From Haloquadratum walsbyi C23 (lineage in GTDB: Archaea > Halobacteriota > Halobacteria > Halobacteriales > Haloferacaceae): 32,000 bases of DNA. The stretch spans positions 1,890,001-1,922,000 of the forward strand of contig NC_017459.1 of assembly GCF_000237865.1 (NCBI RefSeq), in the 5' to 3' direction. Below the pieces are notes generated by a model. That model made no database searches. It was not told where the DNA came from and saw only the letters and a program-made list of their open reading frames with translations. Made by a program: the position numbers and the translations under genes. How positions within the stretch are numbered: the first letter of the stretch is position 1; every line of letters starts with the position of its first letter. Shown here in pieces: positions 1,807 through 32,000 of the stretch.

Positions 1807-2606
1807 CACGGGCGCGGTGGCCCGTGGCTTCGCCGTGGTCTCTGGCGGGAAGCCAGCGAAACGACCGGTGGCGAATTTTAATTCCGCCCGCGCTCGTCTC
1901 TGGCGAGACTCGCGTGGAACCAGTAACACCCGAACACATCAAAAGTGCCACCGCAACAGAGGTCGTCTGTTGCTGCCGTGGCGGGCGTGTCCGTGGGCGT
2001 CCGCCCCTTCACATGGGCGCGACACAGACCCGGCGCACCGCGTCTTACCCCAAAATGGGTGCGCGGGTTTTGCGAGGCCGATAACGTGGATTCCAAATTG
2101 TAGTAGGGCGTCCCGATACTAAAAAAATGGGACGCAGCCGAGCGTACGAGCTTCACCCCCGCCCACGGTGGGGCGGGGAACTCGCGCTGCTTTTCGTTTA
2201 GACCGAACAGAGAGCGATCCCGACCACTCTGACGATGGCGGCCTGTCCGCCCCGAGCAATCAGGCAGAAATCGGAACCAGTCAGGTGAACGGTCAGTTCT
2301 TATACTGAACCGATGCAGATGCTGTGCCTGACTACTGTCTGCACCACAGAAAGTAACTCCGAGTCCGTCGAAATCTGCCGGACTCCTCGAGGCACAAACA
2401 ACTCTGGGAGTCCGAACACGACAGAGGATATGAGTACCGGAGGCTGAGATATGGCAGTCCCAGCAGTCCCACTCTCCCCGCGACAGTCCGTGAACCCAAT
2501 GCGGATTTTCACCGTGTCGGGGTTCGGTTGGACTGCAAACCTGCAATCTCCACCGCTCCCGCTCGCGCTCAGGATTCCTCCGCGTTCACACGAAGGAGGA
2601 TGTCAA
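1807..2606 (+). mobile_element. GC-rich tnpB-less IS200/IS605-like element (E1), non-coding
   Basis: The left hairpin is CCACGGGC-gcggtg-GCCCGTGG (1807-1828), preceded by GTAC. The right end is attcctccgcgttcacacgaaggaggatGTCAA (ends at 2606). It shares blocks with E2 (aagtaactccgagtccg at 2351, ggaggctgagat at 2439, ctgcaaacc). Only spurious Arg/Gly/Cys/Trp-rich ORFs are present. Confidence 0.55.
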
Positions 2607-4416: not shown

Positions 4417-4499
4417 TGCGCGGGACAGGATTCGAACCTGCGGACCTCTATAGGACAGCGTCCTAAGCGCTGCGCCTTTGACCACTTGGCTACCCGCGC
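4417..4499 (-). tRNA. tRNA-Leu (anticodon UAG), class II with a long variable arm
   Basis: The reverse complement reads GCGCGGGTAGCCAAGTGGTCAAAGGCGCAGCGCTTAGGACGCTGTCCTATAGAGGTCCGCAGGTTCGAATCCTGTCCCGCGCA. It has a 7-bp acceptor stem, anticodon loop CTTAGGA, a long extra arm and a GGTTCGAATCC T-arm. Confidence 0.9.
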
Positions 4500-5300: not shown

Positions 5301-5858
5301 GAGGAATGTTGAATGATAGAGCGTCTGAAGCTGGACTTATCAGACAGTTTAGAGAATATACATTATGGATTGCCTCGGGATCGAACTCCGAGGCACTCTG
5401 CCTGCTATCTTGATAGAATTAATAATTACGAGGGTAAGTCTCCTTCCTCAAGGAGAGTGAAACGAACGAGCAGGGAGGGGATACAGCCGTGCATTATCTT
5501 GCCAAGAGATTACTAGCATGCCTTCTCGTGGTAAATTATGACGAGCAGTATTCATCAGACTGACTTAGAATGGGATACTAACCACGGTCAGCCTGAGTTA
5601 TCGTTGTCACTATTGAGTAGGGCTGGGACAGTCCGACTCAGAACGTCTGTGGAGACTGGTATCACGGTTGGTACGCGTCATCCGGACGTACCGCTTGCAA
5701 ATACCGTCACAAAAGCAGAAAGTCTGATGCGAGAACACGGAATCCCCACCCTCAACAGAGCGATAGCGGAGTCGGGTGGGGTAGTTCACGATGTTCGATT
5801 GCAAGTCATTTGCCTCGCGTAAAGACGGCATCTGTGCTACCTGTTGCATACTAACTCA

Positions 5859-13079: not shown

Positions 13080-13220
13080 AGTGCCTAATATATAATTGAA
13101 GATATTATCACTCTGGGGTTATTTCAGTAGTGAAATTAAGAATCGGATTTTTTAATTACTTTGATAGAGTATAGAGTTAATTTACATATTGTTTGACGAA
13201 GGGACAGAGCGTCGACCAAG

Positions 13221-13382
13221 TCATGGATTCGAAACTGGTGAAATCGCGCCACAGGCATCACACTTCAGAACAGTTGCGTCTTGACGATCAATAAGGTGTG
13301 TGTCTAGTGATCCACATTCATGACAGAATACATATGTTTCGGTGTATGATTCAACAGCGTCAGTTATCCGGTTCTGTGTGAA
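13221..13382 (-). pseudogene. eif2b: aIF2-beta C-terminal half (zinc-ribbon domain), detached from its N-terminal half; it has no start codon of its own
   Basis: The minus frame reads (TAG)FTQNRITDAVESYTETYVFCHECGSLDTHLIDRQDATVLKCDACGAISPVSNP*. This is the classical CxxC...CxxC aIF2-beta/eIF5 zinc ribbon, and the fragment contains no Met. Confidence 0.8.
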
Positions 13383-13760
13383 CTACCCTGCCCTACCGCG
13401 CTCGGGGCTGCTCGCCCCTCGCTTGGCGAGGACAGGGTTTCTTGCTTCTGTGTCGGAACTTGTATCGGACGTGGATACAGCGGTTCCAGACTCCGCAGGC
13501 GATTTCCCTTCACAGGCAGTTCAGAGCGTCCCACTCCTCCCAGATGGACACTCAGCCACAATCGACAGTGCGCGCTTTTTGTTGCGCTTGAACACCGTTA
13601 CCGTTAGAGACGTGGTGAGCATCATACTACTAGATTCAACCGTGGGTGGTAAAGTAAACGTACCGATGAACGCGCAACCAAACTATGCGCTATATCCCCT
13701 CTCTACGCCCTCACTCTGTTCGGGCGGTGAGGAAGGGGGCTTAGCGCCTCAAATTAGCTA
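13381..13760. mobile_element. About 380-bp non-coding repeat element, copy 1, inserted inside the aIF2-beta gene
   Basis: It is collinear with 31628-32000. The shared termini are gtgAACTACCCTGyCyTACCGCGCTCGGGGCTGCTCG...CAGGGTTTCyTGCTTC and ...GGCTTAGCrCCT. There is no TIR, and the internal ORFs are not conserved between copies. Confidence 0.7.
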
Positions 13761-14014
13761 AAATCACCAGTAAACCGAGCCCGAGCCCGACCCTTATCAT
13801 CTATTTGAGCACTTGTTCCGAGTTCCGACTGGAGATACCGGACAATATGATTTGGTTTTCGTGCCAACGGGTCATATGTCGTCTCGAAGTTTTCCCAGAC
13901 CGTCCGATTTCCTTCGATATGAATGTCCGGAGTGGGCAGTTCAAACCTATGTCCTTCCTCAGCGACGTCTGGTGTCTCCGCAAGCGCACGGTTCAATTGC
14001 TTATCGTAGTCCAT
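13754..14014 (-). pseudogene. eif2b: aIF2-beta N-terminal half (85 codons), terminated by a stop inside the inserted element
   Basis: The translation is MDYDKQLNRALAETPDVAEEGHRFELPTPDIHIEGNRTVWENFETTYDPLARKPNHIVRYLQSELGTSAQIDDKGRARARFTGDF, followed by S-stop contributed by the insertion. Confidence 0.85.
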
Positions 14015-14223
14015 ATCTGCCAGGACGATCGTCGGGAGATATACAATTTACGGGGAATTAATATTAAAAATACTACATATCATGACATTAAAACAGAATT
14101 AGATAGAATTAAGATCCATGTAGAATATCCGATACACCCTCAGAAACGACCAAATTTGAGAGATGTATGATAACGTGACTCAAGATAGTAATATATCCCT
14201 CCGGTTTCAAGCCAAAGTTGCTT

Positions 14224-19089: not shown

Positions 19090-19368
19090 TAAAGACAGGT
19101 ATACCGCAGCATACAGACGTAATACGACAATCAAGAATTAGATTCCAACGTGGGCTTGTGTTAGATCTATTTTGAGTAGTCATTCGATGAGACTACTGAC
19201 CCTGTTGCTTTCACTACTCGAAATTACTCCGTGATTCCACCAGAGAAGATAGCAAAAGATATGCTCTATCGAAATATAAATATTAAATGTATTATAATCA
19301 ATAGGTTATTCAATCAATTGATTTGCCACTCAAAAACACTTATTCGTGACCTCATATTTCTAATCGAT

Positions 19369-21297
19369 ATGAATGATATCACGGTCACGCTTCCCGATGG
19401 TTCCGAATTATCTGTACCAGCAGATGCAACCGTCGAGGATGTGGCCTATGAGATTGGCCCTGGACTGGGACGCGATACGATTGCTGGGGTAGTTGACGGC
19501 GAGCTTGTTGATGCTACTACATCTGTATATAATGATGCGCGCGTCGTCATCGTTACTGAACAAAGTGACGAATACCAGCGCGTTCTTCGACATTCCGCAG
19601 CCCATGTATTCGCACAGGCACTTCAACGAGAGTACCCAGACGCGAAATTAACTATCGGTCCACCGACTGATGATGGATTTTACTATGATATTGCGAGTGT
19701 TGATCTTGATGAAAATGATCTTGAGACGATTGAAACCGAAATGGAGGCAATTATTGATGCCGACATTCCAATCACCCAACAGTATCAATCACGAGAGGAA
19801 GCGTTCTCGAAATATGAGAATAATCCATATAAGTGTGATATTCTTGAGACAGAGGCCGCCGATGAGGATCCAGTTTCATTCTATATTCAAGATGATTTTG
19901 AGGATCTCTGTCAGGGTCCACATGTCGATTCAACAGGTGAGATTGGTGCAATTACACTATTGAATATTTCATCAGCATATTGGCGTGGTGATGAGGATAA
20001 TGACACACTGACTCGAGTTTACGGAGCAGCATTCGAATCGGAATCAGAACTTGAATCATTCCTTGAGCGTCGTAAAAAGGCAAAAGAGCGTGATCATCGA
20101 AAGATCGGTCAAGAACTTGATTTATTCTCCATCCCAGATATCACTGGACCAGGACTACCGTTGTATCATCCCGATGGGAAAAAGATACTTAATGAACTTT
20201 CATCATTCGCACGGTCACTGAATCTTGAGGCTGGATATGAGCCCGTTGAAACGCCGCATCTCTTTCGGACAGAACTCTGGAAGCAATCAGGGCATTATGA
20301 GAATTATGTTGATGATATGTTCTTATTGGATGTGAGCGATGAAGAGTACGGGCTCAAACCAATGAACTGTCCTGGACATGCGACAATTTTTGACCAACAC
20401 TCATGGTCATATCGCGATTTACCGGTTCGGTACTTTGAGGATGGAAAGGTATATCGCAAAGAGCAACGTGGAGAACTCTCCGGGCTTTCTCGCGTATGGT
20501 CATTTACTATCGACGATGGGCATCTATTCTGTCAGCCAGAGCAAATTGAACAGGAGGTCACGCATGTGATGGATGCAATCTACTCAGTGCTTGATACATT
20601 TGGGCTGGAAGCACATGTTGCGCTTGCAACGCGACCAGAGAAATCAGTCGGCGGCGATGAGATCTGGGAGAACGCTGAGGCACAACTCCGGTCAGTACTT
20701 GAATCACAGAATATTGATTACGATCTTGAACCCGGGGACGGTGCATTTTATGGTCCAAAAATTGACTTTGCATTTGAGGACGCACTTGGTCGACAATGGG
20801 ACGGACCAACCGTCCAGTTAGATTTCAATATGCCGGATCGGTTTGAATTAACATACACTGGTGAAGATAATACGGATCATCAACCGGTAATGATTCATCG
20901 TGCCCTGTATGGATCATATGAACGGTTCTTCATGGTGTTGATTGAGCACTTTAATGGAAAGTTTCCGCTGTGGCTTGCTCCTGATCAGGTCCGAATTCTC
21001 CCAATCAGTGATGATCAACTCGGTTACGCACATCGGATTAAGAATGAACTCAGTGATTTCCGTGTCAGCATTGAGGACCGTGCGTGGACACTTGGACGAA
21101 AAATCCGTGCAGCACAAGAGGAACGGGTACCCTACATGATTATTATTGGCGATGATGAGGTTTCAACAGAGACGATTTCAGTTCGTGACCGGAAAGAGCG
21201 TGAAAAACAGGATGTTGATCTTAGTACGTTTCACTCACATCTCCAGTCTGAGTACGAAAATAAACGACTTGAGCCTGATTTCATCGATATGAATTGA
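19369..21297 (+). CDS. thrS: Threonine--tRNA ligase
   Basis: It has a TGS domain ([13 protein letters not shown]), the editing-domain motif HSAAHV and class II core motifs ([39 protein letters not shown]). ATG at 19369 gives 642 aa. Confidence 0.92.
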
Positions 21298-21315
21298 TCA
21301 CATACGGTTGATTAC

Positions 21316-22811
21316 GGAGAATCGAGGAGAAAGCCTCGCGCTTCAGCGCGGGAATGAATCCGACGAACTCTCCACACTCCACCGCCTGATAACATTGCAG
21401 GATATTCCACGCTGTGGCAATACCCATACCATTAATTACGAATACTGTCATAGAGTACCTATGGCAAAACAGGTTGTCACGCGCACCTATACTGCTTCCA
21501 TTCGGAATCAGTCACGGGTGTCCGACGATCTTGATGCCCTTGGGTTCGCAGCCTCGAAACTCTGGAACGTCGGACGGTGGACGTGTAGTCGCATCTGGGG
21601 TGAAATCGGTCACATCCCGAACCACACCGAACTCACCGCGTACCTCAAAACCCACGAACGCTACGATGACCTGCATTCGCAGTCAAGTCAGCGAGTCCTT
21701 CAAGAACTCGCTGAAGCGTTCAACAGTTGGTACGGCAAACGACGCAACGGAGACATGAGAGCGAACCCGCCCGGCTACCGCAAACATGGTGACGAACACC
21801 CACGCAGCACGGTGACGTTCAAAGCCGCTGGCTTCAAACTCGATACCCAGTACAACCGCGTTCGACTCTCTCAAGGCGCAAACCTCAAGAACTATTGGTC
21901 GGACTTCATCCTCTGTACATTCCATACTCGCCCCGACGTTGACCTCTCCACCGTAGAGACCGTCCAGCAAGTGAAAGCAGTGTGGACAGGCGACGAATGG
22001 GAACTTCGCTTCGTCTGTAAAGTGGAGATTGAGGCATCTGAGTCGCCCGGCGAGAAGACCGTCGGTGTTGATCTCGGTATTAAAAATTTTGCCGCGCTCG
22101 CCTACGAGGACGGTCACAGCGAACTGTACCCGCTCAATTGCTTGAAACAGGACGACTATTACTTCAGCAAACGGATTGCTCGGTGTGACGACTCGAACTC
22201 CGAGCAGGTCACCCGGCTGAATCATAAGAAGTCGGCTCGTCGCACTCACTATTTCCATACGCTTTCGAAACACATTGTTGAACGGTGTGTTGAGGAAGGC
22301 GTTGGAACTATCGTGGTCGGCAATCTCTCCGACATCCGTGTGGATGAGGAGACCAATGAGGCAAAAAACTGGGGTAGGCATGGAAACCTCGATCTCCACT
22401 CGTGGGCGTTTGACCGGTTCAGGAAGCTGCTCACCTACAAATCAGAGACGGAAGACATCACGGTTGAGCAGGAGTCTGAGCGCGATACGTCGAAGTCGTG
22501 TTCGTGTTGTGGTCGCAAGCGGGATGGGAACCGCGTTGAACGCGGGTTGTACGTCTGCGATACGTGCGGTACAGTGGCGAACGCTGATGTGAACGGGGCC
22601 GAGAATATCCGACAGAAAGTATCTCTGAGTTCACCGAATCTGTCGGTGAATAGGAGTAACGGCTGGTTGGCACAGCCATCGACATTCCTGTTCGACAAGG
22701 AGACTGGTGCGTTTGCACCTGAAGAACGGGTTAGGTCGTAAACCACAATATCCCAACTCAGCGGTGCGGTGCCGTGGGAATCCTCGCGCTTCAGCGCGGG
22801 GAGGATGTCAA
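21316..22811 (+). mobile_element. IS200/IS605-family element of the IS1341 type (tnpB only, no tnpA), apparently intact
   Basis: It is flanked 5' by TTAC (21312-21315) and ends in GTCAA (22807-22811). It has near-identical subterminal hairpins cgcgcTTCAgcgcg at both ends (about 21337-21350 and 22785-22798). Confidence 0.85.
21461..22741 (+). CDS. tnpB: TnpB (OrfB) RNA-guided endonuclease-type protein
   Basis: The 426-aa protein has RuvC motifs VGVDLGIKNFA, TIVVGNLSDI and NADVNGAENI, plus the zinc finger CSCCG...CDTCG. Confidence 0.9.
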   Translation: MAKQVVTRTYTASIRNQSRVSDDLDALGFAASKLWNVGRWTCSRIWGEIGHIPNHTELTAYLKTHERYDDLHSQSSQRVLQELAEAFNSWYGKRRNGDMRANPPGYRKHGDEHPRSTVTFKAAGFKLDTQYNRVRLSQGANLKNYWSDFILCTFHTRPDVDLSTVETVQQVKAVWTGDEWELRFVCKVEIEASESPGEKTVGVDLGIKNFAALAYEDGHSELYPLNCLKQDDYYFSKRIARCDDSNSEQVTRLNHKKSARRTHYFHTLSKHIVERCVEEGVGTIVVGNLSDIRVDEETNEAKNWGRHGNLDLHSWAFDRFRKLLTYKSETEDITVEQESERDTSKSCSCCGRKRDGNRVERGLYVCDTCGTVANADVNGAENIRQKVSLSSPNLSVNRSNGWLAQPSTFLFDKETGAFAPEERVRS

Positions 22812-31609: not shown

Positions 31610-31627
31610 TTGATATGACTAGCAGTG

Positions 31628-32000
31628 AACTACCCTGTCTTACCGCGCTCGGGGCTGCTCGTTGCTTTCCTCTTGCTTATTGAGTACAGGGTTTCCTGCT
31701 TCGCTTCGCTTCGCTGTCAGAAGCATAGTGAGGACATAGAGATTCCAGACTTCACGCGTGTGGTTCGGAGTGTCTCACTCTTACTGGATAGACACTCTGC
31801 CGTACTCGTCAATGCGTGCTTCTTCTCGCACCCGAATACGGCTGAGAACACGGCGAGCATCGTGTGAAACACCGAAAACACACAGGATGCTGATTGTATT
31901 GATCAAACCGTATGACAGAGTAATGACGGCGTTGTATCCCATCCCCGCCTTACTCACTCGCTTCGCTCGTTCCTTGAGGACGGCTTAGCACCTATTGAAT
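31628..32000. mobile_element. About 380-bp non-coding repeat element, copy 2 (last few nt beyond the window)
   Basis: It has the same termini as 13381-13760 in the same orientation. It starts 19 nt after the FKBP stop codon. Confidence 0.65.

Follow-up and report, generated by a model that had tools for sequence, protein, structure and literature searches.

An HqIRS71-type palindrome-associated transposable element interrupts the initiation factor gene tif2b1 of Haloquadratum walsbyi

In the stretch of Haloquadratum walsbyi C23 DNA analysed here (32,000 nucleotides, contig NC_017459.1, positions 1,890,001 to 1,922,000; hereafter "the window", from whose first letter all coordinates are counted), a gene for the beta subunit of archaeal translation initiation factor 2 (aIF2-beta) is split in two by 380 bp of non-coding DNA. 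The interrupted gene is tif2b1, which encodes the 135-aa paralogue of aIF2-beta, and the interrupting DNA is a palindrome-associated transposable element (PATE) of the HqIRS71-type family, a non-autonomous derivative of the IS200/IS605 elements. Very probably, the insertion of this PATE made tif2b1 an ordinary, slowly decaying pseudogene, a fate allowed by a redundant paralogue. The case is ordinary in each of its parts: the kind of element is already known, the species is riddled with PATEs, and the gene that was hit has a redundant paralogue.

Both parts of the gene lie on the minus strand, and PF01873 (eIF-5_eIF-2B) is found on both sides of the interruption, which confirms in substance the preliminary description of this locus as an aIF2-beta gene split by about 380 nt of non-coding DNA. 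The open reading frame (ORF) 13754..14014 (86 aa) is N-terminal aIF2-beta and matches Pfam profile positions 4-66 (E 6.6e-15) over 14014..13757, about two thirds of the domain; the C-terminal, zinc-ribbon part at 13382..13221 matches positions 71-116 (E 3.7e-13). Jointly the halves span profile positions 4-116 of a domain made up of an N-terminal helix, a core and a C-terminal CxxC...CxxCG zinc ribbon. The ribbon is located in the C-terminal stretch, where the window allele has kept both CHEC and CDACG. Just as had been noted earlier, this C-terminal half has no methionine with which to begin: 13382..13221 contains no in-frame ATG, GTG or TTG start, and an in-frame TAG precedes it. The roughly 380 nt between the halves show no coding capacity detectable with Pfam, although the short ORFs of the element were not put to a protein-family test.

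The N-terminal fragment is identical to WP_049891871.1 of H. walsbyi, and over 85 aa it is 92% identical to an intact allele (P0128). A search with the restored protein found 135-aa haloarchaeal proteins that match 99% of its length at 66% identity, and no full-length relative above that value. The gene order in the window, TFB - aIF2-beta - thrS, corresponds to HQ2571A (tfbA), HQ2573A (tif2b) and HQ2579A (thrS) of H. walsbyi strain HBSQ001.

The insertion junction is fixed by intact alleles found on related metagenome contigs (loci L014-L016 and L027). With a slash marking the point of insertion, the empty site reads GGTAATTTTAG/ACAGAACCGG (in short form, TTTAG/ACAGAACC), and the occupied site, with the element in brackets, reads GGTGATTTTAG[CTAATTTGAGG...GGGTAGTTCAC]ACAGAACCGG (in short form, TTTAG[CTAATTTGAGG...GGGTAGTTCAC]ACAGAACC). 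Between the intact alleles and the window, DNA collinearity extends up to 13758 and resumes at 13377, which places the element at 13757..13378 of the minus strand, exactly 380 bp long and directly 3' of TTAG. This target, or transposon-adjacent, motif (13758..13761, minus strand) abuts the left end of the element, and the corresponding segment of the empty-site alleles ends in TTTAG. Comparison of the empty with the occupied site reveals no target duplication. The N-terminal part of tif2b1 proper thus occupies 13758..14014 (minus strand), starting with codon 1 and including two bases of the arginine codon at the junction; the called ORF overruns into the element as far as a TAA at 13756-13754, which yields its 86 aa. 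The C-terminal part occupies 13221..13377 (minus strand) and runs from the third base of that arginine codon through QNRITDAVESY...CHEC...CDAC...SNP to the stop.

With the element taken out, the coding sequence reads GATTTTAG/ACAGAACC across the junction and the peptide is FTGDF-R-QNR (FTGDFRQNR). The preliminary description had instead deleted 13381-13760, which has the right length and preserves the frame, but is shifted by 3 nt relative to the element delimited by the intact alleles; the peptide that it predicted, FTGDF followed directly by TQNR, is not the one that empty-site alleles give. The "FT" at 13382-13377 is partly built from the conserved terminal TTCAC of the element. A target GTGAA on the plus strand, which would correspond to that earlier deletion, was likewise rejected by the intact alleles.

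PATEs of H. walsbyi were described in 2011 and number 177-194 per genome (Dyall-Smith et al., 2011, PMC3119063). For both HqIRS71 and the TnpB element ISNph20, Table S9 of that paper gives TTAG as the target, CTGAATACAGGCGCTAAGC... as the 5' end and ...GGCGGGGTAGTTCAC as the 3' end. The window element shares with the HqIRS71-type PATEs its species, the TTAG target, the 5' motif CTGAAT/CTAATT..AGGCGCTAAGC.CCCT.CCTCA and the 3' terminus GGGGTAGTTCAC; like them it has hairpins near its ends and neither inverted terminal repeats nor a target duplication. Its size is also within the listed range: Table S8 gives 340-396 bp for HqIRS71-type members and 380-386 bp for HqIRS74, which is present in three copies in each sequenced strain, whereas HqIRS71 itself measures 543-590 bp (PMC3119063). 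The exact HqIRS number of the window element could not be assigned; the paper prints the ends of HqIRS71 only. The insertion in tif2b1 is apparently not discussed there, judging from the main text and supplementary files, in which we looked for the names of initiation-factor genes. The preliminary description had not recognised the element as belonging to a known repeat family, of which the same window holds other copies.

The PATE (13378..13757, minus strand) is oriented such that its top strand coincides with the gene's sense strand, and its G+C content is 56%, compared with 47% for the window. A repeat scan of 13200-14050 found no terminal inverted repeats that would pair the ends of the element. 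Single-sequence and consensus folds do place hairpins near both ends, with compensatory changes: an imperfect subterminal hairpin at the left end, GCGCTAAGCCCCCTTCCTCAC...GAGAGGGGATATAGCGC (13688..13747, minus strand), and another at 13385-13438. At 380 bp the element is too short for a transposase. Its longest sense-strand ORFs encode 34 aa (the relic frame discussed below) and 65 aa (13364..13561, extending into the flanking gene), and an antisense ORF of 139 aa (13342..13761) extends into both flanks.

The closest TnpB-encoding relatives considered here are IS200/IS605 insertion sequences (ISs) of the ISNph20/ISHwa28 type (IS1341-group), represented by a copy on a Halorubrum ezzemoulense megaplasmid (L019). 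The left-end hairpin of the PATE has its homologue in the left end that precedes tnpB in that IS (about 1165-1240 of L019). The last ~135 nt of the PATE (about 13378-13512; ~130 nt in the direct comparison with this type) align visibly with the 3' end of the Halorubrum IS and finish in the same GGGTAGGGTAGTTCAC terminus; upstream of ~13512 the similarity to the Halorubrum IS is weak, yet the sequence is conserved across PATE copies. From this homology, the 3' part of the PATE (13378..13600, minus strand, containing the hairpin at 13385-13438 and the terminal AGTTCAC) appears to be a relic of the 3' end of tnpB together with the right end. In IS200/IS605 elements, the tnpB 3' end and right-end region encodes the scaffold of the TnpB guide RNA (omegaRNA). 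Given the homology, the PATE would have retained this guide-RNA-encoding region. Unlike the ISNph20/ISHwa28-type elements, however, it lacks tnpB (~1.26 kb are missing and only the relic frame is left), and it can neither move nor cut alone.

In the window copy the relic frame is broken by a TGA. A frame of ~77 codons is open in most PATE copies of other genera (L004, L006, L008-L011 and L005); it reads MLTTLPALFKRDKKRASSVVAEC...NKRG..PERGRA, is closed by the TAG that the terminal GTAGTTCAC contains, and has a tail that can be aligned with the C-terminus of TnpB. We considered and rejected the idea that this frame encodes a small protein: its most variable stretches overlap the compensatory changes in stems, and the window copy has the TGA. 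It is probably a relic of the tnpB tail that has been kept open by nucleic-acid structure. The consensus fold of the sense (top) strand reaches -136.8 kcal/mol, with a covariation term of -3.9 and 19 pairs showing compensatory changes, whereas that of the antisense strand reaches -100.4 kcal/mol with a covariation term of -0.44. The stronger predicted fold of the top strand would fit a guide RNA and, equally well, recognition of single-stranded DNA hairpins by TnpA. No Rfam family matched the element, either in a scan of the whole window at the gathering threshold or in one of 13150-14100 at E <= 10.

Further copies support the assignment of the element to its family. A second, diverged PATE lies at 31625..32000 (minus strand) downstream of an FKBP gene, with the same GTAGTTCAC terminus (blastn matches at 31627-31702 and 31763-31824); its left end falls beyond the end of the window. 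A third, more diverged HqIRS71-type PATE is intergenic at 5353..5789 (plus strand, with an approximate 5' boundary); TTTAG lies just before it at 5348-5352, and it has a left-end hairpin GAGGGTAAGTCTCCTTCCTCAAGGAG...GCAGGGAGGGGATACAGCC and the terminus GGGTGGGGTAGTTCAC at 5774-5789. The terminal 9-mer GTAGTTCAC thus occurs 3 times in the window, compared with 0.15 occurrences expected. Within its left end (5353-5430), the third copy has an apparent extra segment of ~70 nt that can form a hairpin, GGATTGCCTCGGGATCGAACTCCGAGGCACTCTGCC. Dyall-Smith et al. report small mobile repeats that target PATEs, and this segment may be an example.

Outside the window, blastn found matches to the element at 113 places in 53 haloarchaeal plasmid or megaplasmid records, whose hosts include Natrinema, Natronorubrum, Natronococcus, Salinigranum, Halorientalis, Halorussus and Haladaptatus. 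Nine of the plasmid copies match at least 80% of the query at ~75% identity, nearly all of them in unannotated intergenic DNA. Ten aligned copies from 8 haloarchaeal genera share the ends TTAG/CTGTAATTGAGGGCGCTAAGCC...GGTAGTTCAC (the right end also appears as ...GGTAGGGCGGGGTAGTTCAC) between unrelated flanks; TTAG precedes nine of the ten, and TTAT the remaining one. An exact 21-mer scan of genome contigs added one further Haloquadratum copy (J07HQW2, L001) and 2 chance bacterial matches. Some Haladaptatus matches cover only the 3' half, and no tnpB is annotated beside them.

The history of the insertion can be read from other alleles. The 90%-identity cluster that contains the N-terminal fragment holds 12 truncated proteins (81-88 aa) and three intact 135-aa proteins. 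All 12 truncated proteins end in FTG[D/G/N]FS followed by the stop; the insertion position is identical in all of them, and all sampled H. walsbyi-type alleles are occupied. Because the PATE copies of different split alleles are 93-97% identical at this identical position, that is, diverged by 3-7%, the insertion was a single, fairly old event that has since been inherited vertically. Flanks included, the intact alleles are 94-96% (L014-L016) or 90-91% (L027) identical to the window; because they differ at many further sites and show none of the split-allele missense changes, they are separate sister lineages that never carried the insertion and not revertants. The preliminary description had offered a fresh pseudogene compensated elsewhere as one of its readings; the compensation agrees with interchangeable paralogues (see below) and with neutral evolution, but "fresh" overstates the case for an insertion shared by 12 alleles with element copies this diverged.

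The coding sequence of the split alleles evolves neutrally, with no purifying selection. Five split alleles have 12 nonsynonymous and 3 synonymous segregating sites, where about 77% nonsynonymous sites are expected under neutrality; two intact alleles, in contrast, differ at 13 nonsynonymous and 21 synonymous sites (Fisher P = 0.012 against the split alleles). The pairwise ratio of nonsynonymous to synonymous polymorphism (pN/pS) is 0.45-0.9 in the C-terminal half of split alleles, compared with 0.14-0.18 between the intact alleles. The substitutions themselves look damaging. The window allele carries R49P, a two-codon Ala-Arg (AR) duplication and a P-to-L change in the conserved SPDT motif. 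In P0121, which is the most frequent split allele (152 blocks of the collection), KCDACG has become KSDACD, with loss of a zinc ligand and of a conserved glycine; the four cysteines of aIF2-beta are highly conserved zinc ligands (PMC8576121). The earlier statement that both halves are intact is accordingly right as far as stops and frameshifts are concerned, but not with respect to these substitutions and the duplication, nor to the zinc-ligand cysteine lost from sister alleles.

The Ala-Arg duplication is visible in the DNA at 13775-13792 (minus strand) as a tandem 6-nt repeat, GGGCTC GGGCTC, which makes GRARARF of GRARF. Other split alleles have the variant GRAWARF at this site, which is a small, slippage-prone repeat within the gene. 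In some assemblies the orphan C-terminal half is annotated as a gene of its own (P0188, 48 aa, starting MTDAVESY...), as some alleles have ATG at the place of the window's ATA. An independent product of this half is unlikely, since the allele also has the Cys-to-Ser loss.

Haloarchaea also depart from the expectation, voiced in the preliminary description, that aIF2-beta is normally single-copy. Haloferax volcanii has two paralogues, HVO_1678 of 135 aa and HVO_2242 of 202 aa, the latter with a TRAM domain at its C-terminus. Either can be deleted alone, whereas the double deletion is not viable; translation of the remaining paralogue rises tenfold, and the HVO_1678 mutant is viable and mildly affected on acetate and at 4 M NaCl (Gabel et al., 2013, PMC3828320). 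HVO_1678 is the orthologue of tif2b1. H. walsbyi resembles the HVO_1678 deletion strain in that the 135-aa paralogue has been lost and the TRAM-fused one remains, except that here the knock-out is natural and fixed in a wild species. TRAM-fused aIF2-beta is widespread in Halobacteria (848 proteins at E <= 1e-30 and 364 metagenome loci, with P0178 as the seed), and the 2006 gene table of H. walsbyi HBSQ001 lists both types, HQ2573A (tif2b) and HQ2850A (tif2b2, of the TRAM-fused type). The check for a second paralogue that had been proposed earlier, with an ordinary insertion pseudogene as the consequence, therefore came out in favour of that consequence. Loss of tif2b1 is tolerated because haloarchaea have a second, TRAM-fused aIF2-beta that is able to replace it, and we infer that tif2b2 would compensate functionally in this particular strain.

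Taken together, these data suggest the following course of events. An HqIRS71-type PATE of 380 bp, carrying a left-end hairpin, the relic tnpB 3' end with its guide-RNA scaffold and a right-end hairpin, entered tif2b1 within codon 84, immediately 3' of a TTAG. As family membership and the established biology of IS200/IS605 elements would have it, the insertion probably followed their single-strand "peel and paste" route, with a Y1 (HUH) TnpA supplied in trans and a single-stranded intermediate; intact tnpA genes are nearly absent from H. walsbyi (PMC3119063). The first bases of the element (C TAA) close the frame after 86 residues, leaving the zinc-ribbon half without a start, and closure of the one with loss of a start for the other makes the gene a pseudogene. 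On this account the insertion would be old enough to be common to all sampled H. walsbyi-type split alleles, and young enough for these to have accumulated missense changes and in-frame indels only, with no stops.

Several observations weigh against a redundant, neutrally decaying tif2b1. The split alleles contain no stop or frameshift and their indels are all in frame, which we take to reflect low overall divergence and not selection. In the N-terminal half (window 13758-14014 compared with L020, L023, L026 and L028) there are 0 synonymous differences among split alleles, whereas the PATE beside it differs by up to 6.6% and the C-terminal half by about 4.6%; this could indicate some residual constraint on an expressed N-terminal fragment, or it may be due to a recombination boundary or to chance. 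The second paralogue in H. walsbyi is known from the 2006 gene table of another strain, and the tif2b2 sequence of H. walsbyi was not retrieved by tblastn against plasmids (no match), look-ups of homologues and clusters, four contig look-ups, or scans of metagenome and viral contigs; the candidate contigs, with 60-64% G+C, are non-Haloquadratum.

The alternative that fares best leaves the gene a pseudogene, but has RNA-guided homing maintain the insertion or drive its fixation, so that persistence would be enforced by the element and not merely tolerated. The scaffold would be transcribed together with the 3' flank ACAGAACCGGATAACTGACG as the guide, a TnpB of the ISNph20/ISHwa28 type, encoded in the same genome and acting in trans, would cut empty TTAG-ACAGAACCGG copies in the polyploid cell, and repair from an occupied chromosome would copy the element back. 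We regard this as unlikely. An omegaRNA would be expected at the 3' end of the element, overlapping the tnpB end and the right end and reading toward the flank, and the region homologous to such a sequence lies there; it has been kept and conserved across genera, with compensatory changes and the stronger top-strand fold. TTAG and the flank reproduce the empty site, by construction, and the sampled H. walsbyi-type alleles are all occupied. A precedent is provided by the PATEs of Geobacillus stearothermophilus, which are likewise non-autonomous IS200/IS605 derivatives with conserved ends and often encode omegaRNAs thought to guide the TnpB of other elements in trans (Meers et al., 2023, PMC10055086), although those are bacterial and belong to an unrelated sequence family, and the guide-RNA function proposed here follows from homology and structure. 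As to a nuclease, ISHwa28, an ISNph20-type element, is listed in Table S8 with one HBSQ001 copy that has a complete transposase, but Haloquadratum tnpB genes are mostly disrupted (77 of 82 in HBSQ001 and 83 of 100 in C23; PMC3119063). Both the guide RNA and a matching intact TnpB in this strain are putative, no Rfam model matches the element whereas the other TnpB element of the window matches sot0042, and the fold may equally serve TnpA recognition of single-stranded DNA. Drift and a redundant paralogue can, moreover, explain fixation. If true, a homing drive could explain how a disrupted translation-factor gene became fixed across the sampled H. walsbyi population while sister lineages keep the intact gene.

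A second alternative sees a useful product in the N-terminal fragment of 84-88 aa, which in aIF2-beta comprises the gamma-binding helix and the core domain: it would be expressed and retained in truncated form. Its promoter region and start codon are unchanged, its ORF is open in 12 of 12 truncated alleles, and the absence of synonymous differences from this half, next to diverged neighbouring DNA, has been mentioned. All five variable sites of the N-terminal half are, however, nonsynonymous in the five split alleles (R49P and Y47C among them), and the in-frame indels (insertions of AR and AW and a 3-aa deletion) indicate relaxed selection and not constraint, making a retained product improbable in our view.

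Still less probable is that the intact metagenome alleles are recent, precise excisions within one population, in which the gene would toggle on and off. Excision of IS200/IS605 elements is precise and scarless, as established knowledge has it (PMC10055086), and the intact alleles fall in the same 90%-identity protein cluster as the split ones; the divergence of the intact alleles described above (94-96% identity for L014-L016, 90-91% for L027) and their freedom from split-allele missense changes speak against it. An insertion heterogeneous in the population, as had been considered earlier, therefore survives only in the sense that related lineages with 90-96% DNA identity have the empty site, which the proposed comparison of sister loci brought to light (L014-L016 and L027); these are diverged alleles.

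Removal of the element from the transcript, by IStron-like self-splicing or as a bulge-helix-bulge intron, such that full-length aIF2-beta would still be made, had been allowed for in the preliminary description as well; we consider it extremely improbable. In group I introns a U precedes the 5' splice site and the last base is a G, and group II introns begin with GUGYG and end with AY and contain a domain V. The element shares with IStrons its IS605-family origin, its sense orientation and its position inside a gene, it is highly structured, its exact removal restores the frame, and bacterial fusions of IS605-family elements with group I introns exist (bioRxiv 10.1101/2023.11.20.567912), but, unlike IStrons, it contains no detectable group I intron (nor any group II or ribozyme match in Rfam, at the gathering threshold or at E <= 10), its ends CUAAU...UUCAC fit neither group I nor group II termini, other copies of the family are intergenic in either orientation, and the interrupted gene is not under selection, both halves evolving neutrally and the commonest allele having lost a zinc-ligand cysteine. 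A systematic search for bulge-helix-bulge motifs (two 3-nt bulges with a 4-bp helix between them, at both splice sites) found none at the junctions 13758/13757 and 13378/13377. Splicing at the three weak motifs present nearby would excise 378, 399 or 415 nt and in no case bring the frame back.

The window contains other mobile DNA as well. Directly after thrS (19231-21297) lies an ISHwa24-type IS200/IS605 element (21308-22811, plus strand) with a 477-aa TnpB ORF that has OrfB_IS605 and Cas12f1-like TNB domains. It matches Rfam sot0042 at 22617-22802 (155 bits), and its right end, ...GGGGAGGATGTCAA, is the 3' end given for ISHwa24 in Table S9 of PMC3119063. At about 2100-2606 (plus strand) we found the 3' end of a different type of PATE, ...GGATTCCTCCGCGTTCACACGAAGGAGGATGTCAA, which resembles the published HqIRS56 terminus and brings the PATE families of the window to at least two. 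A tRNA gene is located at 4417-4499 (minus strand; Rfam RF00005, 60.8 bits).

For the locus itself, a PATE-interrupted pseudogene matters little beyond annotation: it should be labelled tif2b1 (nonfunctional), interrupted by an HqIRS71-type PATE, and neither two hypothetical ORFs nor a "hypothetical protein" (WP_049891871.1) is the right annotation. For the element family, it provides an empty and an occupied site as a clean, dated pair, belonging to a haloarchaeal TnpB-family element whose transposon-adjacent motif (TTAG) and 20-nt target are known; tests of archaeal TnpB homing could make use of this pair. For the organism, it parallels in nature the aIF2-beta-1 deletion that was engineered in Haloferax volcanii, and suggests that H. 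walsbyi makes do with the TRAM-fused aIF2-beta-2.

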